Assembly (NCBI GenBank): GCA_043821645.1
Contig: JBDRCO010000072.1
Location: 79,962-143,961 of the forward strand
DNA from: Pseudomonadota bacterium
GTDB lineage: Bacteria > Myxococcota > JACRCW01 > JAFGSX01
Reading direction: 5' to 3'
DNA: 64,000 nucleotides
In this document: in pieces, positions 406 to 64,000 of the stretch
Numbering within the stretch: position 1 is the stretch's first letter
Layout of the letters: every line of letters starts with the position of its first letter
Made by a program: the position numbers and the translations under genes
Notes under the pieces: model-generated
Databases searched by the model: none
What the model was told of the DNA's origin: nothing
What the model saw: the letters and a program-made list of their open reading frames with translations, nothing else

Positions 406-1725
406 GTGCGCAAGGTGGTGCTTTACAGCGTCCTGCTGTTCGTCGGACTGGCGCTGTCCCAGGTCCTGCCGGCGTTGCTGGGCACAGCCCAGGACAGCGT
501 CGCCACGGCGATCCGCGTGCTGACCATGACGGGCCTGGCCTTCATCATGATCCACGTCGGCTTCGAGTTTCACCTCGACAAGTCGCGGCTCGGCTCCTAC
601 GGCTGGGACTACCTGGTGGCCTTCACCGCGGCCTCCTTTCCCTGGGTGCTGGTGACCGGCTACTTCGTGTTCGTGATGCTGCCGCCCGAGCTGTGGAGCA
701 ACTTCGACGCCTGGAAGGAGACCCTCCTGGCCGGCCGCTTCGCCTCGCCCACCTCGGCGGGGGTGCTGTTCAGCATGCTCGCCGCTGCGGGGCTGGGCGC
801 CACCTGGGTGTTCCGCAAGGCGCGGGTGCTGGCGATCTTCGACGACCTGGACACCGTGCTGCTGATGATCCCGCTGAAGATGCTCATGGTGGGTCTGGCC
901 TGGCAGCTGGGCCTGATCGTCGTGGTCATGGCTGCCCTGCTGGCTGTGGCCTACGTCTGGATGCACCGGGTGCGCCTGCCCCTGAGCTGGGGCTGGGTGC
1001 TGGGCTATGCCGCGGCGATCGTCGGCATCAGCGAAGTCCTGTACGCCAGCAGCAAGCTGGTGGACCCGTCGGTGCCCATCCACATCGAGGTGCTGCTGCC
1101 CGCCTTCGTGCTCGGCGTCATCGCACGGCCGCGGGAGACCGCCCCCGGCGCCGACGCCGCCGGGGTCGAGCACGCGCTGCACGCGCTGCTCGAGCGTCCT
1201 GGCGAGCAGCGCGCCACCTCCGTCATCTCGGCCGCCTTCATGGTGCTGGTGGGGCTGAGCATGCCTGCCATCCTCGGCGGGCTGGATGGGCAACATCCGC
1301 AGCCGGACCCGGCGGTGCTGCACGCCGCGGCCCCCGGCGCGGTGGTCGACGATCCTGTCCAGCACGGCGGCCCGGCGCCGGGGCAGGCGACCGTGACGGC
1401 CAGCCAGCCGAGCCTGGGATGGGGCCTGATCGCCCTGCACGTGCTGCTGATCACCCTGCTGAGCAATCTGGGCAAGATGTTCCCCGCCCTGGTCTACCGG
1501 CGTGAGGCACACTGGCGCCACCGCCTGGCCGTGGCCGTCGGCATGTGGCCCCGCGGCGAGGTCGGCGCCGGGGTACTGGTGCTCAGCCTCAGCTACGGCA
1601 TCGGCGGCCCCGTGGTCACCGTGGCCATGCTCTCGCTGGCGCTCAACCTGGCGCTCACCGGGGTGTTCATCCTTCTGGTCCGCAAGCTGATCCACGGCGT
1701 GCCAGAGGGGCCAGCTGCCGCCTGA
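406..1725 (+). CDS. Polytopic membrane protein, possibly cation/proton antiporter-like
   Basis: Track ORF 292..1725; many hydrophobic helices (VLYSVLLFVGLAL, LVGLAWQLGLIVVVMAALLAV). In-frame GTG at 406 chosen because N-terminal 38 aa are Arg-rich and non-membrane. Family assignment is by eye only. Confidence 0.45.
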   Translation: MRKVVLYSVLLFVGLALSQVLPALLGTAQDSVATAIRVLTMTGLAFIMIHVGFEFHLDKSRLGSYGWDYLVAFTAASFPWVLVTGYFVFVMLPPELWSNFDAWKETLLAGRFASPTSAGVLFSMLAAAGLGATWVFRKARVLAIFDDLDTVLLMIPLKMLMVGLAWQLGLIVVVMAALLAVAYVWMHRVRLPLSWGWVLGYAAAIVGISEVLYASSKLVDPSVPIHIEVLLPAFVLGVIARPRETAPGADAAGVEHALHALLERPGEQRATSVISAAFMVLVGLSMPAILGGLDGQHPQPDPAVLHAAAPGAVVDDPVQHGGPAPGQATVTASQPSLGWGLIALHVLLITLLSNLGKMFPALVYRREAHWRHRLAVAVGMWPRGEVGAGVLVLSLSYGIGGPVVTVAMLSLALNLALTGVFILLVRKLIHGVPEGPAAA

Positions 1726-1826
1726 GGCCCGGCTCGGTGCCGTCCCCTGCGGCGACCTCGACCGGAGACGGTGCCGCCAACCGGACGCAGGTGGCTCGCA
1801 GGCCGCCCATTGCATACCCTGAAGGG

Positions 1827-3074
1827 GTGATCGTTCTGTCTCCAGCCGCCGCCCGGCGCGGCAGGTGCTTCGTCGCCATCCCGCTGTGGCTTGTCGTGGC
1901 CTGCCCGGCCGTCCTACCTGGCGCGGATGCGGGCTCACCGCACCGCGACACGGGCCATGCAGACAGCGGCACGGTGGAGCTTGGATGGGTGGATGTGGCC
2001 TCGGGCGTCGACGCCACGACGGAGGAGGATGCGGGACGACGCCACGACGCTGCTGTCGGACTCGACAGCGGCACGCCGCCAGACGGCCCTGCGGACGCGG
2101 GCCACGGCGACAGCAGCGATGGCGCGACCGCCGGGGATATGGAGACGCTCCAGGACGCGTACATCGTCGAGGATGCCGGCCTGGACACTGACGCAGACCC
2201 GGGGCCCGATGCCGCAGAGCCGCCCGACGCCGGCTCTACCGACGCCCTGATCCTGACCGCGGTCACCCTCAACACCCACAGCTTTCAGGAAGGTCCGGAC
2301 TCCCTGGCCAAGCTGCAGCAGATCGGCCAGGGCCTGGCGGCCCTGCAGGCAGACGTGGTGGGCCTCAACGAGGTGATGAGCGGCGAGTTCTGGTCCTACG
2401 ACTACGGCGGTGCCAGCTACGACGGCACCGCGCTGATCCAGCAGGAGCTCGAGGACGCCAGCGGCGTGACCTGGTACCACGCTGCGGTCGGCTTCGCTCA
2501 CTGGAGTAGCGGCGAGCTGATGTCCAACGTGGTGCTGTCGCGCTATCCCCTTGTCGAGGTCGACAGCCGCGCGTTGACCACCACGGATTTCTGGCCGGCA
2601 CCCGACGAGCAGCGCAACGCGGTTTACGTGCGCATCGAGCTGCCCGCGCGCGGTCCGCTCAATCTTTTCGTGACGCACGCCTGGGGCTGGGACTCGGTGG
2701 ATACCCTGACCCAGATCGCCGAGGTCAAGACCTTCATGGCCAGCAAGGCCAGGGGCGATGAGGTCCTCGAGCTGCTGCTGGGGGATCTCAACATGCCCTC
2801 GACTTATGCAGGCTACGACGCATGGCTCGACGCGCCCCCCTTTGTGCTCGTCGACACCTCTGCCGTGGCCAACCCGTCCGGTATGGCCGACGCCACGACC
2901 GCGGATGAGATGTACCGCATCGACTACGTCCTGGCCCGCGAGGGTGCTGTGACGAACCAGCAACCGATGCGCCTGCAGTCGTTTCGGTCCTTTGATGGCC
3001 TCGAACACCTGGGTCTCACCCTGCCGCAGGTGTCGGACCACTACGGCGTGGTCACGGTGTTCGCGCTGGAGTGA
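1827..3074 (+). CDS. Endonuclease/exonuclease/phosphatase (EEP) family secreted protein
   Basis: Track ORF 1545..3074; GTG at 1827 precedes a signal-like stretch (AIPLWLVVACPAV); LTAVTLNTHSF near N-terminus and SDHYGVVTVF at C-terminus resemble EEP-fold motifs. Confidence 0.55.
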   Translation: MIVLSPAAARRGRCFVAIPLWLVVACPAVLPGADAGSPHRDTGHADSGTVELGWVDVASGVDATTEEDAGRRHDAAVGLDSGTPPDGPADAGHGDSSDGATAGDMETLQDAYIVEDAGLDTDADPGPDAAEPPDAGSTDALILTAVTLNTHSFQEGPDSLAKLQQIGQGLAALQADVVGLNEVMSGEFWSYDYGGASYDGTALIQQELEDASGVTWYHAAVGFAHWSSGELMSNVVLSRYPLVEVDSRALTTTDFWPAPDEQRNAVYVRIELPARGPLNLFVTHAWGWDSVDTLTQIAEVKTFMASKARGDEVLELLLGDLNMPSTYAGYDAWLDAPPFVLVDTSAVANPSGMADATTADEMYRIDYVLAREGAVTNQQPMRLQSFRSFDGLEHLGLTLPQVSDHYGVVTVFALE

Positions 3075-36640: not shown

Positions 36641-37723
36641 TCAGCCGCGACAGTTGTCGATGATAGTGCTGCCATCGGTGAAGACCTCGAGATCGCAGGT
36701 CTCGGCACTGCCCCCGACGACGTAGGTGGTGATGGTGCCCGTGGCATGGCCGCCGAGGTCGTAGTGCAGCTCGCCCTCTTGCTCCTTGGGCTGGGCCGTG
36801 AGCTCGTCGTCGAACACCCAGGTCTCGCGGTAGGCTCCACTGTATTCGATATCCTGATGCACGGTCAGGGTCGAGCCATCGGCGTAGTTCTGCGTGTAGT
36901 CGCCCTGCCCCGTGCCCGCAGGCGAGAAATCGTACTGGCCCTGGTAGTCCGGAAAGACCTCGGTGCCCAGGTCATCGTACCGGAACTCGTACCTCAAGCT
37001 GCCGTCGGGAAGCGCTGTCAGCTTCTCGCGCACACCCCAGCCGTCGGTGGTGCTGTCTATGGTCTGCTGGATGGTGCCATCGTGCTGCTCGACCTGGACC
37101 AGGGTCCAGTCCGGACTGATCTCGGTGCCCAGGTCATCGTAGCTCACGCTGCCATTGAAGCGCCCCTCGTCGTCGCTCAGGCCCTCGACCACGAACACGT
37201 GGTCCGGGTAGGCGTACACTTCGCGCAGTTCGGTCAGACCGTTGGCCAGCTCTCGGTACTCGCCCTCGAAGCCGCCGCCCTGGCTCGAGCTGCCGGTGTA
37301 GACGGTGGCGCCGGGCTCCACGGGATCTGGTCGGAAGTTGAACTCCCAGGTGACCTCACTACCGTTGCGAAGCTGGTACACGGTGCTGTAGTGACCGCTG
37401 CCGTCGCCGTTATCCACGCCCTGGGTCAGGACCCTGGCCACCTCGCCGCCCTCGGCGCAGGAATACGCCACCTCGAAGGCTCCCGTGGCATCGGTGTAGT
37501 GCTCGTAATCGGTGCTCCACTCCTGGCAGCTATCGGACTGGGCCTCACCCTCGGCGAGAGCCTTGGCCTCGATGGACGGGATGCCCCGGGCTCCGGTTTC
37601 ATTCGGGGGGGTCAGGTGTGGCACCACGGTGCCAAAGGCGTGAACCGCAGGCACACCCACGTCACAGCCGCCTGCGGCGACCGCCACCCATGCCAGCACA
37701 ACCGTCACAGACGCAATGCGCAT
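36641..37723 (-). CDS. Hypothetical lipoprotein
   Basis: Lipobox VAVAAGGCD; acidic, Gly/Tyr/Asp-rich beta-type sequence; no known motif recognised. Confidence 0.4.
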   Translation of the reverse strand: MRIASVTVVLAWVAVAAGGCDVGVPAVHAFGTVVPHLTPPNETGARGIPSIEAKALAEGEAQSDSCQEWSTDYEHYTDATGAFEVAYSCAEGGEVARVLTQGVDNGDGSGHYSTVYQLRNGSEVTWEFNFRPDPVEPGATVYTGSSSQGGGFEGEYRELANGLTELREVYAYPDHVFVVEGLSDDEGRFNGSVSYDDLGTEISPDWTLVQVEQHDGTIQQTIDSTTDGWGVREKLTALPDGSLRYEFRYDDLGTEVFPDYQGQYDFSPAGTGQGDYTQNYADGSTLTVHQDIEYSGAYRETWVFDDELTAQPKEQEGELHYDLGGHATGTITTYVVGGSAETCDLEVFTDGSTIIDNCRG

Positions 37724-37969
37724 GTCCCGTCCGTCGCGAACACCTCGACGCGGTACATGGATGCGAAACCCGGGCCATCGGGATCAGGTCCGAAGGCGCA
37801 GAAGATCCGGGCAGATCGAGAGGTGATCCGGATTTCGCCCATGATAAATGCGGCCGATTTCATCCAGAGTGGCTGATATGCTCCAGCAGCCTGGTGGATC
37901 CGAACCTCCCGCTCCTGCCCCGACAAGCGCGGATCAGGTGCGGCGCGGCTCTGCCGGGCGGAACATGGC

Positions 37970-50842: not shown

Positions 50843-51922
50843 ATGTCCATGAACACCTATCTCAATCCGACCCAGCTGGCCGCGGATCGCACAGCGGTCA
50901 TGCTCAACATCAACGCCAAGAAGGTCACCTCGCGGGTGGTGGATCGCGTGGCCCAGGTGGTGCCGCACACCGACCTGTTCCTGTCGCGCTCCTTTGACGA
51001 TGCTCGCAAGCAGGTCGAGACCGTGGTGGCGCGAGGCTACGGCCGCGTGCTCGCCGGCGGTGGCGACGGTACCCTGGTGACGCTGATCAATCTCATCGAT
51101 CGCACCATTCGACGCTGCCTGGATCGCGGCCAGCAGGTACCCTTTCCCGAGATGGGCATGTTGCGCCTGGGCACGGGCAACGCCGTGGCCTCGGTGCTCG
51201 GTGCGGGTTCTCTCATTCCCGACGTGAAGAGGCACCTGCGCGGAGAGGATCAGCTCCGCGTGCAGCTCGACATGTTGCGCGTCGGCGATCAGGACACGCT
51301 GTGCCCCTTTGCCGGCATTGGCTACGACGGCGAGATCCTGGGCGACTACAACTGGGTCAAGGCGCATGCCCAGAATCCCGTGGCCAAGGCCCTGATGCAG
51401 ACCTCACTCGGCTACCTGGCCGGACTGTTCCTGCGTACCTTGCCGCGCAAGCTGGCCGAGTTCGGGCGCAACCTGCCCGAGATCGAGGTGCGCGCGCGCG
51501 GCCGCGCCTTCCGCGTCGACCACCAGGCCAACGATGCCCTGGTGCGAGCCGATGACGAGCTGCTGTACCGCGGTCCCGTGGGCTTCGCGGGCGCTGGCAC
51601 GGTGCCGGTGTACGGCTTCAACTTCCGGGTGTTCCCCTTTGCCGGTCGCGTGCCTGGCCTGATGCACCTGCGCGTCACCGACGTCAGTGCGCTCACCGCC
51701 GTGGCCAACCTGGGCGGCCTGTGGCGCGGTACCTGGCGGCATCCGCAGCTGCACGATTTCCTGGTCGAGGGTGTCGAGATCGTGGGCGATCGCCCCCTGC
51801 CCTACCAGCTCGGTGGCGACGCGGCTGGTGCGCGGGCGAACCTCGACCTACGCGTGGCCGAACAGCCCCTGGCCATGGCCGCCCTGGCCCCGCCCCGGCT
51901 GGCACTGCCCGCAGCAGCCTGA
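50843..51922 (+). CDS. Diacylglycerol-kinase-like lipid kinase (DAGK catalytic domain family)
   Basis: Track ORF 50810..51922; GGGDGTL signature (VLAGGGDGTLVTLIN) and surrounding fold typical of DAGK_cat / YegS-type lipid kinases. Confidence 0.65.
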   Translation: MSMNTYLNPTQLAADRTAVMLNINAKKVTSRVVDRVAQVVPHTDLFLSRSFDDARKQVETVVARGYGRVLAGGGDGTLVTLINLIDRTIRRCLDRGQQVPFPEMGMLRLGTGNAVASVLGAGSLIPDVKRHLRGEDQLRVQLDMLRVGDQDTLCPFAGIGYDGEILGDYNWVKAHAQNPVAKALMQTSLGYLAGLFLRTLPRKLAEFGRNLPEIEVRARGRAFRVDHQANDALVRADDELLYRGPVGFAGAGTVPVYGFNFRVFPFAGRVPGLMHLRVTDVSALTAVANLGGLWRGTWRHPQLHDFLVEGVEIVGDRPLPYQLGGDAAGARANLDLRVAEQPLAMAALAPPRLALPAAA

Positions 51923-52032
51923 ACCCTCCGCCAGATTCGCTTTCTTCATGATAAGAAAGGTACGCGCCGTCGCGTCCCGCCCACAGCACCTGCACGCCAG
52001 CAGGAGTCCGGGCGGCAGAGGGGAGCCAACGC

Positions 52033-53142
52033 ATGACAGGCATCAAGGGACCGGCCACCGGCTACCGCATCACCCCGCACGCGCAGGACCAGGGCACAGC
52101 CCTGACCAACAAGGACGTGCACGCCTCGTCGTCGCGCGCCGGTGAAGCCAGCGCTCCCAAGGTTGCCAAGGCCCTGGACAGCGCCCTGGCCGACGGGCGA
52201 CTGACCCTGCAGGAGTTCGAGGGCGGAAGGACAGAGCGCTTTTTACGCACCCTCGGCGTCGACGGCGGGTCGTCGGTGCTGGGCGCCATGCGCGACGACG
52301 GCTTGCTGGCCAAGAACCAGATCGACCCCGTGGACTACCGCGACTGCCAGCGCCTGCTCGAGCGCGCACAGCTCCCGGCGGGCCACCCCGACCACATCAC
52401 CCTCGACGCTGGCGTGCCCGAACGGCTGGGCAAGGTGGTCGACGAGTTTCAGGCACGGATGCTAAAAGGCCCGCAGGCCGGCGCCTTCATCGAGAAGATC
52501 CAGGACGAGAAACTGGGCCCGCAAAAGGTGGTCAACCAGACCGCCATGACCCTGGCCCCCGTCGACACCGGCACCTTCCTCGACCGCCTGCCGCCCGAGC
52601 GCTGGGCCGAGGAGTGCTATGACCTCAAGAGCCTGCACAACCAGGTGCTGGACCGCCAGGAGCTGCCCGACGGCGGCTACCAGGTGACCATGCTGCAGCG
52701 CATGGAGTTCGGCGACGGCGGCACCGCCACCGACATGACCAAGCGCACGGTGGTGCGCAAGTGGAGGGACGCGGACAGCGGGCAGTGGCACGCCACCGCC
52801 GAGTGGAAGGTGTACAGCTCCGATCCCACGAGCCAGATCCCGCACGCGGGATCCATGCGCATCGACACCGGGCGCATGGAGTTCAAGCCGGTGCAGAAGG
52901 ACGGCCGCTGGCACACCGAGGTGCTGTTCAACAACGCCACCCAGACCAACACCGCCACCGAGGAGAAGCTGCTGGGCCTGCTGGGCAAGAACACGCCGCT
53001 CAGGCAGAACATCTCGGCCCAGCTCGGCGCCTCGCCCCTGGGTATCACGCCCTTTGCCAGCAGCGTGGTCGAGCGCTACCGCGATGTGGGCAGCGGTCAG
53101 ACACCGCCGCGCTGGCAGGGCCTGGCCACCCACACCGAGTAG
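52033..53142 (+). CDS. Hypothetical cytoplasmic protein
   Basis: 369-aa ORF with protein-like composition, no signal peptide, no recognisable motif; sits between lipid kinase and phosphatase genes on same strand. Confidence 0.4.
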   Translation: MTGIKGPATGYRITPHAQDQGTALTNKDVHASSSRAGEASAPKVAKALDSALADGRLTLQEFEGGRTERFLRTLGVDGGSSVLGAMRDDGLLAKNQIDPVDYRDCQRLLERAQLPAGHPDHITLDAGVPERLGKVVDEFQARMLKGPQAGAFIEKIQDEKLGPQKVVNQTAMTLAPVDTGTFLDRLPPERWAEECYDLKSLHNQVLDRQELPDGGYQVTMLQRMEFGDGGTATDMTKRTVVRKWRDADSGQWHATAEWKVYSSDPTSQIPHAGSMRIDTGRMEFKPVQKDGRWHTEVLFNNATQTNTATEEKLLGLLGKNTPLRQNISAQLGASPLGITPFASSVVERYRDVGSGQTPPRWQGLATHTE

Positions 53143-53252
53143 AAGGACACGCCGGCGCTTTCGGCCTGGGCTCCTGGTCGAGCCGCCCGGGTTCTGCTAT
53201 CTCGGACCGATTGGAAGGACACGCTTGCTGGCGCCGCCAACGAGGATCTCGC

Positions 53253-54683
53253 ATGACGAGACTGCTACCCAACTTCTTCCGCCGCATCGAGAATCTGTTT
53301 CATCCGGCACCCCTGTCGCCCACACGCGACGCCTCGACCACGACGGAAACCTTGCCCGAGGGCGACCGCTTCAGCCCCGATGGCCACGCCTCGCCGCTGC
53401 CTAGCACACAGCCGCCGGCGGGGACCGTGACATCTCCCCTGGGCGCGCGCCTGTCGGCCATGGGCGTGGGCGCACAGACCGACGTGGCGACGGTGCAGGC
53501 CCGCATCGAGACGCTGCTGGCCAGCCCCACCGAGAAGCCCCAGGAGGCCGAAGTGCTGGGGCTGCTGCGCGGCAGCGGCGGCCAGGCCCTCGATCAGCTG
53601 GTGCAGCAGCTGGACCTGTCGCGCCTGGTCGAGGCCATGGACGACCGCTGGTTCGGCCCGGACAACCGCGAGGCCCTGCTCGACCTGCTCACCGACGAGC
53701 GCGTGGGCGACCTGAGCACCGATAGCCGGGCGCGCCTGATCACCGCCCTGCAGCGCGGCGAGACCCCGCGGCAGTCCGAGCGCGCCATCGAGAGCCTTTT
53801 TCTCGCCACCACCGGCAGCGAGCTGACCGCACTGAAGAACGCCATCGACGCCGGTGGCGATCACCGCGACCTGCTGCAGCTGCTGCACCACGACATCGAC
53901 GCGGGCGGCATCCGGCGGCGCATCCTGCGCCACATCGAGGCGCAGGCTCCGGCGCGCCAGCCTGGTCGGCTCAAGGTGCTCAGCGACATCGACGACACCT
54001 TCTACGCCAACCTCAAGGACAAGCGCTTTCCGTCGAAGACGGTGTACCCGGGCGTGCGCAGCTTCTACGAGGCCCTGGCCGGTGAGCGCATGACTGGCGG
54101 CGGCGCCGAGGCGCGGGTGGGCTTCTTGACCGCGCGCCCCGAGGACCCCACGGGCCTGATCGAGGACGAGACCCTGCGCATGCTGCGCGAGCGCGGCGTC
54201 GACCAAGCCATGGTGCTCAGCGGCGATATCGGCCACGTCGTGGGCAACGAAGAGATCGCCGAGAAGAAGCGCGAGAACTTCGACCAGTTCGCGGCGCTGT
54301 ATCCCGAGTACGGCTTCGTGTTCGTGGGCGACAGTGGCCAGGGCGACGCCCTGCTGGCCCAGGGCCTGACCGCGGATCACGGCGGCCAGGTGCCCGCGAC
54401 CTTCATCCACGACGTGGTGGGCCTGCCGGAGACGCAGCGTGCCTCCCTGGCGGCGCAGGGGGTGATGGTCTTCGACACCTACGCCGGGGCGGCCCTGGCA
54501 GCGCACAACAAGGGCCTCATCGGGCTGCCTGCGCTGACCAAGGTGGCCCGCGACAGCGTCGCCGAGCTCAAGGCCGTATCCTTTGGCGATGCCGCGCAAC
54601 GGACTGCGCGCTTCGAGGATCTCGGCCGCGACCTCGTGGCCATCAACGCCTTGCTGCCCACAGACCAGCAGATCGTGCTCTGA
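53253..54683 (+). CDS. App1-like phosphatidate-phosphatase-type domain protein with N-terminal extension
   Basis: Track ORF 52761..54683; start MTRLLPNFF (ATG 53253); C-terminal half has VLSDIDDTF ... FLTARPE ... FVFVGDSGQGDA resembling the App1/DUF2183 HAD-like phosphatase signature; N-terminal 240 aa unassigned. Confidence 0.5.
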   Translation: MTRLLPNFFRRIENLFHPAPLSPTRDASTTTETLPEGDRFSPDGHASPLPSTQPPAGTVTSPLGARLSAMGVGAQTDVATVQARIETLLASPTEKPQEAEVLGLLRGSGGQALDQLVQQLDLSRLVEAMDDRWFGPDNREALLDLLTDERVGDLSTDSRARLITALQRGETPRQSERAIESLFLATTGSELTALKNAIDAGGDHRDLLQLLHHDIDAGGIRRRILRHIEAQAPARQPGRLKVLSDIDDTFYANLKDKRFPSKTVYPGVRSFYEALAGERMTGGGAEARVGFLTARPEDPTGLIEDETLRMLRERGVDQAMVLSGDIGHVVGNEEIAEKKRENFDQFAALYPEYGFVFVGDSGQGDALLAQGLTADHGGQVPATFIHDVVGLPETQRASLAAQGVMVFDTYAGAALAAHNKGLIGLPALTKVARDSVAELKAVSFGDAAQRTARFEDLGRDLVAINALLPTDQQIVL

Positions 54684-54786
54684 GTCGACGCCCTCTCCCC
54701 CTCCCAGAAGAATCCTGTCGTCGCGCGTTGGGCTTGGCGCAGTCAACAGCTTCGCGGACAATGGCGCCACGATTCCGGGGAGGACC

Positions 54787-55725
54787 ATGACAGGCTCTTT
54801 TTCACGCGAGGACGTCCTGGCGCTCATGCCCGAGTGGGCGGACCAGGTGCTGGACATCCAGCCGCTGACTGGCGGCATTACCAACACCCTGTATCGCGTG
54901 CGCACCGGCCGCGGTGACGACGTGGTGGTGCGCCTGCACGGTGCGCGCACCGAGATCTTCATCGACCGCGACCTCGAGGTCGAGAACCTGCGAAGACTCG
55001 AAAACACGGGTGTGACCCCAAGACTCGTCCGTTACCTGCCCGCGCAGCGCGCCACGCTGGTCGCTTTCATCCCGGGCCGTGTGCTCAAGAACCCTGACTT
55101 TCTCGACGAGAAACTGTGGCCGGTGCTGGTCGAACCCATTCACCGTGTGCACCGCAGCGGCGTGGTCCTGCCGCGCGTGTTCGAGCCCCTGGTCGAGGTG
55201 AGACGGCTGGCACGAGTCTTCGGCGATCTCAACGTCGACTATCCGGAGTTCGACATTCCTGGCACCTTGGACAGGCTGGAGCGCCTGGCCGCGGCCGCGG
55301 CCGCCCCCGTCGACGATTACGTGGCCTGCCACAACGACCTGCTGGCCGAGAACTTCGTGCTGGCCGGCGAGGGCGAGGCTGCACGCATGCACCTCATCGA
55401 CTGGGAGTACGCGGGCCAGAGCACGCCGCACTATGACCTGGCGGACATGTTCCAGGAGATAGCGGTGCCGCGCGCGATCGAGCGCGAGCTGCTGCGCCTG
55501 TACTGGCAGGACCAGGACCTGGACACAGCGATCCGCCTGTGCGACCTGCACAAGCCCTTTCCGGATATCTACTGGTTCTTGTGGAGCCTCATCCAGCGCG
55601 CGGTGTCGACGATAAACTTCGACTACTACAGCTACGGCGCCACCAAATACCGCAACGCCTGGGCCAACATCAAAGCCGCGCGCACGCTGCATGGGGTGCG
55701 CAGCGACGGCGCACGCTCGGGCTGA
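54787..55725 (+). CDS. Choline/ethanolamine-kinase-like phosphotransferase (APH fold)
   Basis: Track ORF 54583..55725; start MTGSFSRED (ATG 54787); GGITNTLYRV nucleotide loop, Brenner motif HNDLLAENFV, IDWEYAG motif. Confidence 0.65.
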   Translation: MTGSFSREDVLALMPEWADQVLDIQPLTGGITNTLYRVRTGRGDDVVVRLHGARTEIFIDRDLEVENLRRLENTGVTPRLVRYLPAQRATLVAFIPGRVLKNPDFLDEKLWPVLVEPIHRVHRSGVVLPRVFEPLVEVRRLARVFGDLNVDYPEFDIPGTLDRLERLAAAAAAPVDDYVACHNDLLAENFVLAGEGEAARMHLIDWEYAGQSTPHYDLADMFQEIAVPRAIERELLRLYWQDQDLDTAIRLCDLHKPFPDIYWFLWSLIQRAVSTINFDYYSYGATKYRNAWANIKAARTLHGVRSDGARSG

Positions 55726-55848: not shown

Positions 55849-56892
55849 ATGCAACGCAACAACATCCTGGTTCTGGCCCTGCTGCTGACCAGCGGCCTGG
55901 CCCTGCTGGTTGGCGTGTTCAGGCTCGCCTCGGCGCCAGCGCCGGCGGAACAGAGCGAGTCTGACGACGTCGAGGGTTTGGTTGGCGAGCTGTGGTCCGG
56001 AGGTAAAGACGCCCGCGACGGCGTGGGCGTGGTCGAGCTCAGCGGCGTGATCCAGTTCGGTAGCGAGGACATGGGTCCCTTCTCGACGGTGTCGCCCACC
56101 GACCTGGCCCTGCGCAAGCTGCGCGCCTTTGCCAAGGACAACAAGGTCAAGGCCGTGGTGCTGAGGGTCAATAGTCCGGGCGGCTCGCTGGCGGCGTCAC
56201 AGGAGATCGCGGACGAGGTCAAGCGCCTGGTCAACGATCTGAAGAAGCCCGTGGTGGTGTCCATGGGCGACGTGGCCGCCTCGGGCGGGTACTACGTGTC
56301 GGCGCCGGCGAGCAAGATCCTGGCGCAGCCCGGCACGCTCACCGGCAGCATCGGCGTCATCACCAGCGGTCTCAACCTGGCCGGCCTGATGGAGAAGCAC
56401 GGGGTCAAGGTCAACAGCATCACCAGCGGCCCCAACAAGGACACCCTGGCCTACTGGCGCGAGCCTCGCCCTGACGAGATCGCGCTGATGCAGAAGCTGG
56501 TCGACGACGCGTACGGTCAGTTCCTGGAACAGGTGGCCACGGGCCGGCACATCGATATTGAGGTGCTCCGACCAAACGCCGATGGCCGCGTTCTTCTCGG
56601 CAGCCAGGCTCTGGAACTCGGGCTGGTCGACGCCCTGGGTTCGTTTCGCGACGCCGTGCGCCTGGCCTGCGAGCTGTCGGGCCTGGACCCCGACGACCCG
56701 CACCTGATCCGCGACAGCGGCTCGTGGATGGATCGTGTGCGCCTCAACTTCGATTCCCGCCTGGGCTCGTGGCTCGGAGCTCGGGCTCCGGGTACGACGG
56801 GCGCCCAGCTTCTCGCCGCCTCGACCTTGCCCGTGGCCTACCTGTACCTGCCACCAGCCTCGTTGCGCCAGCTGGTCGAGGTGCTGCCGTGA
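55849..56892 (+). CDS. sppA: Signal peptide peptidase SppA (36K type)
   Basis: N-terminal TM anchor (ILVLALLLTSGLALLVGV); ClpP/crotonase-like core with KAVVLRVNSPGGS and GDVAASGGYYVSAPASKI catalytic Ser region. Confidence 0.7.
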   Translation: MQRNNILVLALLLTSGLALLVGVFRLASAPAPAEQSESDDVEGLVGELWSGGKDARDGVGVVELSGVIQFGSEDMGPFSTVSPTDLALRKLRAFAKDNKVKAVVLRVNSPGGSLAASQEIADEVKRLVNDLKKPVVVSMGDVAASGGYYVSAPASKILAQPGTLTGSIGVITSGLNLAGLMEKHGVKVNSITSGPNKDTLAYWREPRPDEIALMQKLVDDAYGQFLEQVATGRHIDIEVLRPNADGRVLLGSQALELGLVDALGSFRDAVRLACELSGLDPDDPHLIRDSGSWMDRVRLNFDSRLGSWLGARAPGTTGAQLLAASTLPVAYLYLPPASLRQLVEVLP

Positions 56893-57437
56893 GCCGCGCC
56901 CTCGAGCTGTGTCGACTTCTGGTGGTGGCGCCGGAAGAAGCCGCCCAGTCCGTGCTGCAACGACCCCTGGAGTCGTCCACAGTGGTCCTGCTGCTGTGGG
57001 GCGTGTTCGCCCAGGCCGTGTCCCAGGCCCTGAGTGCAGGCCATGCACCACTCGGTCTGGCAGCAAGCTTCCTTGCCGCCCTGATCGCGGCCAGCGTGGC
57101 CATCTTGCTCGGCGGAGCCCTGATCCACCTGAGCGCGGGCCTGCTCGGAGGCAATGGCAGCGCCGGAGACCTGGTGCGCGTGCTGGCCCTGGTCTACGCC
57201 CCCAACATTTTTCTGCCAGCATTTGCCCTGGCAGGCGACGGCGCGCTGTTTCTGGCGCGCGTACTGATCGGGCTGTGGCAGCTTTGGATCCTCGTCGTCG
57301 GCGTGCGCGAGGCGCACCGACTGAGCACCTCCACAGCAGCCAGCGCCGTGATCATTCCCGCGGTGTTCCTGCTGTTCGCCCTGCCCCTGGCGGGGATCAG
57401 CGTGCTGATGCTCGGCCTGCTGTCTGCGATGGGCTGA
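56889..57437 (+). CDS. Yip1-like multi-pass membrane protein
   Basis: Track ORF 56724..57437; GTG start at 56889 overlapping sppA stop; four to five hydrophobic helices. Confidence 0.4.
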   Translation: MSRALELCRLLVVAPEEAAQSVLQRPLESSTVVLLLWGVFAQAVSQALSAGHAPLGLAASFLAALIAASVAILLGGALIHLSAGLLGGNGSAGDLVRVLALVYAPNIFLPAFALAGDGALFLARVLIGLWQLWILVVGVREAHRLSTSTAASAVIIPAVFLLFALPLAGISVLMLGLLSAMG

Positions 57438-61027: not shown

Positions 61028-61708
61028 TCAGCGCTGCGGGGCGCGAACCCGCCGTTGCACCTCGTCCCGGGTGGCGCGGGCCACCATCATGGCCGTGGTG
61101 ATGGTGACCCCGGTCATGAACTCCGGCTCATCGCGGAACATGCTCCCGAGCCCCCATCCGAGCTGGGTGAGATCCGTGTACGTGGTGTAGAAGCACAGCG
61201 TCCGCGGTCCCGCCGCCACCAGCTCCCAGCGGCCACGGGTTCCTGGAAGCTCACCGTCAACCTGCCAGAAGCTCACCCGAGTCGGCGGATCCAGGCGGTG
61301 CGCCAGGGTGTAGTGAACCTCGATGGCGGGCAGGCGCCACACGCGCATGGCCACGGTCTGCTGCACGCGCACAGTGCCTGCGGGGCTGCCATCGAGCACC
61401 TTCGCCTCGGTGTTCTGAGGCATGAAGCTTGGGTAGTGCTCGAAGTCGGTGATGGTCTGCCACACACGATCTACGGGCGCGTCCACCAGCACACCGGCGG
61501 TCACCTCGCGCAGTGTGCCGTCGGCCTGGCGCGCGACCAGCACCAGCTCCCCCTGACGCAGGAGGTCCTGCACTGCGCTGGCCGGCAGAGCGGGCAGACC
61601 CTTGTCGACGGGGGACGAGGGCTGCGAACTCGCCGCGCCGAGGATCAGCAGACCGCACCCCAGCACCATGAACACGGCGTGCCGGGTGGCACCGGACCCG
61701 ACGCTCAT
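61028..61708 (-). CDS. Secreted SRPBCC-like (START/polyketide-cyclase fold) protein
   Basis: Signal peptide AVFMVLGCGLLILGAASS; VDAPVDRVWQTITDFEHYPSFMP is typical of the SRPBCC ligand-binding fold. Confidence 0.45.
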   Translation of the reverse strand: MSVGSGATRHAVFMVLGCGLLILGAASSQPSSPVDKGLPALPASAVQDLLRQGELVLVARQADGTLREVTAGVLVDAPVDRVWQTITDFEHYPSFMPQNTEAKVLDGSPAGTVRVQQTVAMRVWRLPAIEVHYTLAHRLDPPTRVSFWQVDGELPGTRGRWELVAAGPRTLCFYTTYTDLTQLGWGLGSMFRDEPEFMTGVTITTAMMVARATRDEVQRRVRAPQR

Positions 61709-63141
61709 GACGGCGCCGTCACGGCGTGCAGGCGTTCGCGCACCACATCGCGCAGCAGGCGCAGGCTGTCGTCGTCACCAGGCTCCAGCGCGTCGATGAC
61801 CGACACAAGACCATTCATCTCGGGTCGCGCATGACTGGCCAGGACGCCGAGCGCCGCACCGCGTACAGAGACGTCGCGGGCAGAGAGCAAGGCCGCCACT
61901 CGATCGGCATCGTCGACGGAGAGTTGCGACGAGGAACCGTGCAGACGATCCAGGACACCCAGGGCCGCTGTCACACGTTCGGGCTCACCGCTGCGAAGGT
62001 GAGCGCGTGCCAGGGGAAGCAGTGCATCGCGAAAAGGTCCGTCGAGGGGCAGCGGCGACAGCGGACCGGTCAGGGAGCGCAGCAGCGGCGCCTGGCACCG
62101 GGGCGTCGCCCGCGCGAGCCGGTCGATGAGTGCGTCGACCTGAGCGTCGGGCACGCCGGTGCGAGACAGCGCGCGAGCGGCCTCCTCGGCGACAAAGCTG
62201 TCCCTGTCGTCGAGCATGGGCAGCAGCGCCGCGACAGATTCTGTGAAGGCCAGGCAGCCCAGGGCCGCAGCCGTGCCCGCCCGCACGAAGCGATCGGGAT
62301 CGTGCGTGAGCTCGGTGAGATCGTCGACAATGTGCTGCTCGCTCCCGGTGAGACTGCTGGCCAGGGCGCGCAGGGCCATGGCGCGCAGGTCTGCGGCGGC
62401 AGGACCGTCCCCACCCGAGGCCGCGAGCAACAGCAGGGCGCCACTGGCCTCGGGCGCAGGCCGCTGCAACAACAGACGCACGGCGGTCGAGCGAACGGCG
62501 AGCACGGGATCACCCAGCGCTTCGATGAGCACGGTCTGACCACGAGGCCCTGCCTGCAACAGCTCCTGCTCGGCTCTGGCGCGCTGGCTGGCCACCGCGT
62601 GAGCAGCCTGGCGCAGGGCGTGCCGCAGGTCCGCATCATCGGCCCCCGAGACCAGCTCGGCGAAGCTCGACAGGTCCTCGGGCTCCACCTCGATGCTCGT
62701 CAGCGCCGCCGCCGGCATCGCCGCAGGTTGCGGGCTGGCGATGCCATCGAGTGCCCGCTGGGCCGCCGCACGCACGTCCAGGTCGTCATCGCGCGTCAGA
62801 TCGCGCAGGCGTTGGCGGTCTCCCTCGTCATGCCAGCTCGCATCCGCCAGGTCCGCCGCAGCTCCGAGCAGGATCGCACGCAGGTCGGCATGCGTCTCGG
62901 CTGTCGCGGCCTGCACCAGTGCCGGGCGAGCCTCGAGGTCCCGCAACGCCGCGAGCAGCAGGGCAGCCTGGGCCACCAGCAGGGGGCGTTCGCCGAGCTG
63001 CAGGGCGTTGCGCAACAGGGGCCTGGCAAGTTCGGCCTTCTCCTGCAGGGCCTGCTCCGCGGCCTGGCGTCGTTCTGGATGGGTCGCATCCAGATCGTTG
63101 ATCCAGCGCACGACCTCGTCGGTGGGATCGGGCTTGCTCAT
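61705..63141 (-). CDS. HEAT-repeat protein
   Basis: Track ORF 61705..63411; start MSKPDPTDEVVRWI (ATG 63141); repeated D..VR..AA.ALG helical pairs; stop overlaps downstream start. Confidence 0.5.
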   Translation of the reverse strand: MSKPDPTDEVVRWINDLDATHPERRQAAEQALQEKAELARPLLRNALQLGERPLLVAQAALLLAALRDLEARPALVQAATAETHADLRAILLGAAADLADASWHDEGDRQRLRDLTRDDDLDVRAAAQRALDGIASPQPAAMPAAALTSIEVEPEDLSSFAELVSGADDADLRHALRQAAHAVASQRARAEQELLQAGPRGQTVLIEALGDPVLAVRSTAVRLLLQRPAPEASGALLLLAASGGDGPAAADLRAMALRALASSLTGSEQHIVDDLTELTHDPDRFVRAGTAAALGCLAFTESVAALLPMLDDRDSFVAEEAARALSRTGVPDAQVDALIDRLARATPRCQAPLLRSLTGPLSPLPLDGPFRDALLPLARAHLRSGEPERVTAALGVLDRLHGSSSQLSVDDADRVAALLSARDVSVRGAALGVLASHARPEMNGLVSVIDALEPGDDDSLRLLRDVVRERLHAVTAPS

Positions 63142-63237
63142 GGCGGTCTGTGTAGCACGAAGCGCGCAGGGCTCCAATGCGACCTGCCAGTACGGGCGTG
63201 CGTGGTATATCTCGACCCGTCCTGCCAAGAGGTGCCC

Positions 63238-64000
63238 ATGCGCGTCATCACCTGGAACGTCAACGGCGTCCGAGCTGTCCTCGGCAAGGGGCTCAAGCCC
63301 TGGAGCATTGTCCCAAAATGCGACGTGGTGTGCATTCAGGAGACCAAGGCCCAACCCGACCAACTTGACGCGGACGTGGTGACACCACGCAACTGGCACG
63401 GCTTCTGGCACTCGGCCCAGAAGAAGGGCTACTCGGGTGTGGCCACCTTCTGCCGCGCTCAGCCAGACGAGGTGGTCGAGGGCCTGGGTGATCGCCGCTT
63501 CGACGACGAAGGCCGCGTGCTGGCCGTGCGCTTTGGTGAGCTGGTGGTGGTCAACGCCTACTTTCCGAATAGCCAGGACGAGGGCCGGCGGCTCGACTAC
63601 AAGCTGGCGTTCTGCGCCTCGGTCGAAGAATTATTACGCGTCTGGCAGAGCAAGGGCTGCGAGGTGTTGCTGGTCGGTGACTACAACATCGCGCACCAGC
63701 CCATGGACCTCGCCAGACCTAAGCAGAACGAGAAGAACGCGGGCTACCTTCCCGAGGAGCGCGCCTGGTTCAGCCATTACCTGTCCCTGGGCTATCGCGA
63801 CGTGTTTCGCGAGCGCTACCCCGAGCGGGAAGGTGCCTACACCTGGTGGAGCTACCGCGGTGGCGCGCGCGCGAAGAACGTGGGGTGGAGACTGGACTAC
63901 GGCACCACCACGCATGCTCTCGCGGATCGCGTGGCCGACATCATCATCCACCCCGACCTCGAGGGCAGCGATCACTGTCCGGTGCGCATCGAGCTGCGCT
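63238..64000 (+). CDS. xth: Exodeoxyribonuclease III (AP endonuclease), 3-prime partial at window edge
   Basis: My own translation from ATG 63238: MRVITWNVNGVRAV...CIQETKA...VNAYFPN...GDYNIAHQP...SDHCPV; not in the ORF track because no stop lies within the window. Confidence 0.75.
   Translation, partial: MRVITWNVNGVRAVLGKGLKPWSIVPKCDVVCIQETKAQPDQLDADVVTPRNWHGFWHSAQKKGYSGVATFCRAQPDEVVEGLGDRRFDDEGRVLAVRFGELVVVNAYFPNSQDEGRRLDYKLAFCASVEELLRVWQSKGCEVLLVGDYNIAHQPMDLARPKQNEKNAGYLPEERAWFSHYLSLGYRDVFRERYPEREGAYTWWSYRGGARAKNVGWRLDYGTTTHALADRVADIIIHPDLEGSDHCPVRIELR

Follow-up and report, generated by a model that had tools for sequence, protein, structure and literature searches.

Four genes, here called g1 to g4, lie in a row on the plus strand of the window, a 64,000-nucleotide stretch of contig JBDRCO010000072.1 (assembly GCA_043821645.1, positions 79,962 to 143,961). 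In an original prediction, made from the DNA letters without database searches, they had been described as a module of lipid kinase, phosphatase and headgroup kinase. The gene models were guided by ribosome-binding sites, in a window of about 68% G+C. All four are intact open reading frames (ORFs) that start with ATG and have a Shine-Dalgarno-like sequence upstream. The extent (50843-55725) and common orientation originally proposed were correct, and all the motifs quoted for the genes were found where they had been placed. The start of g1 at 50843 is backed by a homolog of 359 amino acids (aa), which aligns with it end to end (residues 1-359 against 1-359). The genes and the first spacer, whose length is given in nucleotides (nt), are:

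g1, 50843-51922, plus strand: 359 aa, soluble lipid-kinase-family protein (DAGK_cat) of an uncharacterised subfamily
g1-g2 spacer, 51923-52032, plus strand: 110 nt, with the AT-rich palindrome CTTTCTTCATGATAAGAAAG at 51940-51959
g2, 52033-53142, plus strand: 369 aa, rare protein with an N-terminal helical region and a predicted START-like domain
g3, 53253-54683, plus strand: 476 aa, APP1_cat (DUF2183) HAD-type phosphatase
g4, 54787-55725, plus strand: 312 aa, LicA-like small-molecule kinase of the choline/ethanolamine-kinase family

The intergenic gaps measure 110, 110 and 103 nt (g1-g2, g2-g3 and g3-g4) and there is no start/stop overlap; the genes lack the tight spacing or overlap that would suggest co-translation. 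No transmembrane segments were predicted in g1, g2, g3 or g4. All four belong to known superfamilies, as uncharacterised members. The NCBI annotation already lists g3 as a phosphatase domain-containing protein and g4 as a member of the choline/ethanolamine kinase family, and g2 as hypothetical.

Families and predicted folds of the four products

The product of g1 scored 43.9 bits against Pfam DAGK_cat (PF00781, curated cut-off 23.6). It contains the motifs GGGDGTL (aa 72-78, nt 51056-51076) and GTGNA (aa 110-114); residues G73, G74, D75 and G76 were invariant in 30 aligned sequences, and GGDG and GTGN are conserved in the g1 subfamily, which comprises 704 cluster representatives (E<=1e-3) with lengths of about 340-370 aa. 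DAGK_cat was matched by 30 of the 30 members of the family alignment, YegS_C by 13. When the family profile was compared with the PDB the best matches were YegS (2e-12), DgkB (1e-8) and SphK1 (0.02); further solved relatives are BmrU and, more distant along with SphK1, AGK. None of the NCBIfam equivalog cut-offs for YegS/DgkB (118-387) was reached by g1, which scored 18-32 bits (TIGR00147, 31.7 vs 118.65; YegS, 28.6 vs 284 and 27.6 vs 387.45; diacylglycerol kinase, 19.9 vs 385).

The family named in the original diacylglycerol-kinase-like call was therefore right, as DAGK_cat lies above its cut-off and GGGDGTL is present. With Escherichia coli YegS and Staphylococcus aureus DgkB g1 shares the DAGK_cat domain with its GGDGT motif, and members of its family also share the YegS_C beta-sandwich domain. 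It differs from them in that g1 alone reaches only about 22 bits to YegS and falls into a subfamily of its own (about 340-370 aa), whose genes often lie beside dnaK. We suggest that g1 is a soluble kinase of the YegS/DgkB type, which would presumably phosphorylate a lipid hydroxyl with ATP bound at the GGDGT motif.

For g2 no Pfam or NCBIfam family was found: the only match, DUF1707, was sub-threshold (20.3 bits vs 27.6), and the START and Polyketide_cyc sequence profiles were not matched. Its homologs amount to 15 proteins in a collection of 5.8 billion clusters. The AlphaFold2 model is confident, with a predicted local distance difference test score (pLDDT) of 82 and a predicted template modelling score (pTM) of 0.83, and on this ground two parts can be told apart in g2: helices near the N-terminus (about aa 15-112), then a helix-grip domain of START-like type (about aa 128-355). 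The predicted structure has the helix-grip fold around a ligand cavity by which the START/SRPBCC superfamily is defined. From the START/SRPBCC lipid-transfer domains StAR, STARD5, CERT, BmCBP and Ups1, g2 differs in its sequence, which is only 4-10% identical and gives no Pfam hit, and in the extra N-terminal helical region; the fold match comes from the predicted structure. The gene between the lipid genes had originally been called unassigned, which still holds for Pfam and NCBIfam families, and a START-like lipid-transfer fold can now be predicted for it. This fold strengthens the lipid theme of g1 to g4, and g2 may bind a hydrophobic ligand in its START fold. As a model-based prediction, the START-like fold is new for the g2 family. 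No similarity was detected between g2 and a weakly SRPBCC-like ORF of the window (36641-37783, minus strand).

Two g2 homologs at 67% identity (L175, 952-4934, and L176, 2-4002) share another tight context, in which the g2 homolog lies 17 nt after the gene of a 787-793 aa protein and 48 nt before that of a 146 aa protein, neither of them in Pfam. This neighbourhood may be the commoner context of the rare g2 family.

The C-terminal part of g3 (about 150 aa) matched positions 2-153 of the 154 in Pfam APP1_cat (PF09949) with 32.2 bits (cut-off 27.1). The motifs DIDDTF (nt 53985-54002) and GDSGQGDA (nt 54327-54350) are both present, which, together with the score, bore out the family of the App1-like call. 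The DxDx(T/V) catalytic motif lies on a predicted HAD-type fold. In the AlphaFold2 model (pLDDT 79) a disordered N-terminus precedes two domains, one helical and one of Rossmann type; in sequence the N-terminus (aa 1-74) is P/S/T-rich, the helical domain (aa 78-231) is conserved, and the catalytic domain (aa 240-476) contains DIDDT and GDSGQGD. The disordered segment (nt 53253-53474) has pLDDT below 50 and is absent or unalignable in most of 24 aligned homologs. Throughout the g3 family DxDxT (DIDDT) and the acidic motif GDSGQGD are invariant, and K-[VI]-LSDIDDT, [TS]ARP, KK, GDSGQGD and the N-terminal helical domain are conserved. Of the more than 447 family members, most come from Myxococcus, Corallococcus, Archangium, Sorangium and Polyangium, and some from Planctomycetota and other metagenome-assembled genomes (MAGs).

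Comparison of the g3 family profile with PDB sequences gave no meaningful match, and nothing on DUF2183 in bacteria turned up in the literature searched for App1, DUF2183 and phosphatidate phosphatase. The only characterised member, yeast App1, is Mg2+-dependent and promiscuous, with phosphatidate, lysophosphatidate and diacylglycerol (DAG) pyrophosphate among the lipid phosphates that it hydrolyses, and it is described as serving signalling or endocytosis, not de novo lipid synthesis (PMC11586075). The likeness of g3 to Saccharomyces cerevisiae App1 consists in the catalytic-domain match above the cut-off, DxDxT, GDSGQGD and the predicted HAD fold; the match, however, covers about 150 aa at 32 bits, and g3 adds a bacterial helical domain and the disordered N-terminus. 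The g3 product would be a Mg2+-dependent HAD phosphatase in which the first Asp of DIDDT carries the phosphate of an aspartyl-phosphate intermediate, with phosphatidate-type lipid phosphates as our best guess for its substrate.

The fourth product, g4, scored far above the cut-off of Pfam Choline_kinase (PF01633; 107.4 bits, cut-off 29), and 54.3 bits against APH. It contains the Brenner motif HNDLLAENF (nt 55330-55356) and the choline-kinase motif IDWEYAG (nt 55396-55416), which extends as IDWEYAG...YDLADMFQE; here too the family originally called, choline/ethanolamine kinase, was right. The family of g4 is large (more than 1857 hits) and extends across other phyla. Full-length alignments were obtained with two PDB entries, 3dxq (7.8e-25) and Streptococcus pneumoniae LicA (4r77, 2.4e-20), with which g4 shares HxDxxxEN, IDWEY, D-L-A-x-x-F-x-E and the W-x-L-W helix. 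It differs from LicA in having no licB-, licC- or licD-type neighbours, and in staying below the cut-off of every named NCBIfam kinase equivalog, among which GntI (111.9 vs 357) and ThiK (69.7 vs 299.45) were the best partial matches, followed by APH(3') (18.9 vs 205) and AmgK (17.7 vs 500). We suggest for g4 a LicA-like kinase activity that would use ATP to phosphorylate a small substrate of the amino-alcohol type. As none of the four genes reaches an equivalog cut-off, DAG, phosphatidate, choline and ethanolamine are assumptions as substrates.

Gene linkage in relatives

We assembled 176 loci from relatives (81 for g3, 80 for g1, 3 for g4 and 12 for g2) and searched them with BLAST and family-specific hidden Markov models (HMMs). 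The co-localisation on which the proposed module depended was not borne out: the arrangement was kept in 0/81 g3 loci, 0/80 g1 loci and 0/3 g4 loci, and g1-g2 adjacency appeared in only 1 of the 12 g2 loci.

The g3 set, 1.47 Mb altogether, combined 80 loci from species-representative genomes, mostly spanning ±10 kb, with the one that carries the closest homolog (57% identity). Neither tblastn nor the family HMMs detected relatives of g1, g2 or g4 in it, and SppA, which is encoded downstream of g4 in the window, was nearby in only 4 of the 81 loci. No universal partner of the g3 homologs emerged when neighbours were clustered; the clusters, complicated by spurious ORFs of the high-GC DNA, reflected clade-level synteny only and covered at most 22 of the 80 loci. 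The closest homolog (L081, 7118-8440) has as neighbours a DUF3626 protein and several non-Pfam proteins, about 450 aa long, on the opposite strand, a context unrelated to that in the window.

The g1 set contained 80 metagenome loci (L093-L172, 0.62 Mb), 44 of them with at least 2 kb downstream and 38 with at least 2 kb upstream. They were found via the family alignment; scanning metagenome contigs with the single g1 protein gave no match. None of the 80 loci contained g2, g3 or g4. The recurrent neighbour of the g1 family was a divergent dnaK/HSP70 gene, present in 33 loci; at 29 loci the g1-type gene is followed by an oppositely oriented conserved gene, whose product of about 250 aa has no Pfam family. 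The window itself lacks the dnaK context of the subfamily.

Three long contigs with g4 homologs (55-60% identity) displayed three mutually unrelated contexts, none with the other three genes. From 11 of the 12 g2 loci g1, g3 and g4 were absent, and g2 homologs at 51-71% identity (L082-L089, L174-L176) had other neighbours and no g1. In one MAG (CAZONM) homologs of g2 and g3 were found on different contigs (L084 and L049). The sizes of the families are discordant as well, with 704 cluster representatives for g1, 15 proteins for g2, more than 447 hits for g3 and more than 1857 for g4; in size and host range the four differ by orders of magnitude.

Spacers and flanking genes

The palindrome in the g1-g2 spacer is perfect (CTTTCTT-CATGAT-AAGAAAG), and the RNA fold of the spacer has a z-score of -2.1. 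Only the CATGATA core of the palindrome is kept in the nearest relative (contig L173, see below). The palindrome may act as an operator or form a hairpin. Scanning for promoter consensus sequences gave 0 promoters, and the number of terminator-like sites was at the level of shuffled sequence (3 vs 2.8 expected). No motif common to the four spacers was found, and a repeat search gave only GC-rich background inside coding sequence.

The same-strand run continues past g4 with two genes that are outside the proposed module:

SppA (S49 peptidase), 55849-56892, plus strand: Pfam Peptidase_S49 158 bits, NCBIfam SppA_dom 206 bits
Yip1-domain membrane protein, 56889-57437, plus strand: Yip1 45.9 bits

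Transmembrane segments were predicted in both products. The two genes overlap by 4 nt and are therefore probably translationally coupled; they are linked more tightly than any two of g1 to g4. Upstream of g1, on the opposite strand, are the genes of a Laminin_G_3 protein and a VanY/PG-binding peptidase.

Other ORFs of the window with a lipid or phosphoester flavour are located at 61028-61774 (minus strand), 61711-64000 (plus), 1506-3074 (plus) and 36641-37783 (minus), and comprise an SRPBCC/Polyketide_cyc protein, two proteins of the Exo_endo_phos family and the weakly SRPBCC-like ORF mentioned above (36641-37783). The gene content of the window looks myxobacterial (Ser/Thr kinase, TPR proteins, sigma-54 activator, FG-GAP and beta-helix secreted proteins). 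The named best matches of g2 and g3 come mostly from Myxococcota/Myxococcales, whereas the NCBI label of the assembly is 'Pseudomonadota bacterium'.

Independent neighbours or a shared pathway

On balance we lean slightly towards regarding g1 to g4 as independent, intact cytoplasmic genes, juxtaposed in one lineage represented by a Myxococcota-like MAG, with no conserved pathway module. Since relatives do not keep the four genes together, a dedicated lipid pathway is unsupported. What stands of the remodelling or signalling pathway originally proposed is the assignment of its members to lipid-type families; the pathway itself was drawn from adjacency, and relatives lack the arrangement. Separate transcription of g1 to g4 is, like their substrates, something that we infer.

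Several points speak against independence. All four products are lipid-related by fold or family, and their genes are contiguous on one strand. The absence of any g1-, g2- or g4-type hit from the 1.47 Mb around g3 homologs indicates a rare background, and because the families are rare in it, four in a row would be unlikely under random placement; this improbability is tempered by the post hoc selection of the finding from a scan. Intergenic distances near 100 nt are compatible with co-transcription, and in large Myxococcota genomes gene order is generally poorly conserved. Finally, on the 1.8-kb contig L173 of the nearest relative the homologs of g1 (82% identity) and g2 (79%) are adjacent, with g1 upstream at a distance of about 100 nt. 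The next gene, 19 nt after g2 (MTRRFYVLHETRRVLVFDD...), is not g3-like; as the contig ends 35 codons into that gene, g3 and g4 could be located further downstream. The contribution of L173 is small, because identity of about 80% predicts a shared order from common descent alone.

The lipid-flavoured products, their contiguity on one strand and the rare background of their families would also suit a lineage-specific cluster for lipid-phosphate cycling, which is the original idea with g2 added. In such a cluster DAG, ceramide or a similar membrane lipid would be extracted or presented by g2 and phosphorylated by g1, a step that g3 would reverse, and g4 would supply a phospho-headgroup. We consider this unlikely: no relative's locus has all four genes and the nearest relative keeps g1-g2 only, the families are discordant, translational coupling is missing and no member has an established substrate. 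Should the four genes act together, they would represent a rare case in bacteria in which a kinase and a phosphatase cycle a signalling lipid that has a START-type carrier dedicated to it, and would provide the first functional context for bacterial APP1/DUF2183 proteins.

It is likewise improbable that g1 and g2 alone form a functional pair, in which a START-like protein would carry or present the lipid to a soluble lipid kinase and g3 and g4 would be unrelated neighbours. That a protein with a lipid-transfer fold should work together with a soluble lipid kinase seems mechanistically sensible, and the adjacency is kept in L173. This order, however, is what recent common descent would leave at about 80% identity; g2 homologs at 51-71% identity have no g1 beside them, and no g2 was found near any of the 80 g1 loci.

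More of a long shot is recruitment of g1 to g4 in this lineage as a new bacterial lipid-phosphate switch. Here g2 would hand a DAG- or ceramide-like lipid to g1, g3 would reset the switch and g4 would give the phospho-headgroup. Such a switch, if true, would be a prokaryotic counterpart to the signalling cycles of phosphatidate and DAG or of ceramide and ceramide-1-phosphate in eukaryotes.

In eukaryotes phosphatidate phosphatase and choline/ethanolamine kinase both feed the CDP-choline/CDP-ethanolamine pathway, and a phosphatidate-phosphatase-type gene, g3, adjoins a choline/ethanolamine-kinase-type gene, g4. A Kennedy-type route to phosphatidylcholine or phosphatidylethanolamine, with DAG derived from phosphatidate by g3 and phosphocholine or phosphoethanolamine made by g4, is nevertheless extremely improbable, given that g3-g4 adjacency occurred in 0/81 g3 loci and 0/3 g4 loci, and that yeast App1 has no part in making lipids de novo (PMC11586075). 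We rejected it since the partner enzymes are lacking: the window ORFs scanned with Pfam, those outside about 28.7-33.3 kb, include no cytidylyltransferase and no CDP-alcohol phosphotransferase, the two enzymes that would accompany g4 in a Kennedy pathway or in lic-type phosphocholine decoration.

With g1 to g4 read as independent neighbours, the only new information concerns the START-like fold of g2 and the lack of a conserved partner for bacterial DUF2183 proteins. Thematic adjacency alone is a weak basis for calling pathways in large, rearranged genomes. The Myxococcota-wide DUF2183 family appears to consist of HAD phosphatases with two predicted domains, beside which no gene partner is conserved, and the g2 family, of which only 15 proteins are known, gains a confident prediction of a START-like fold.

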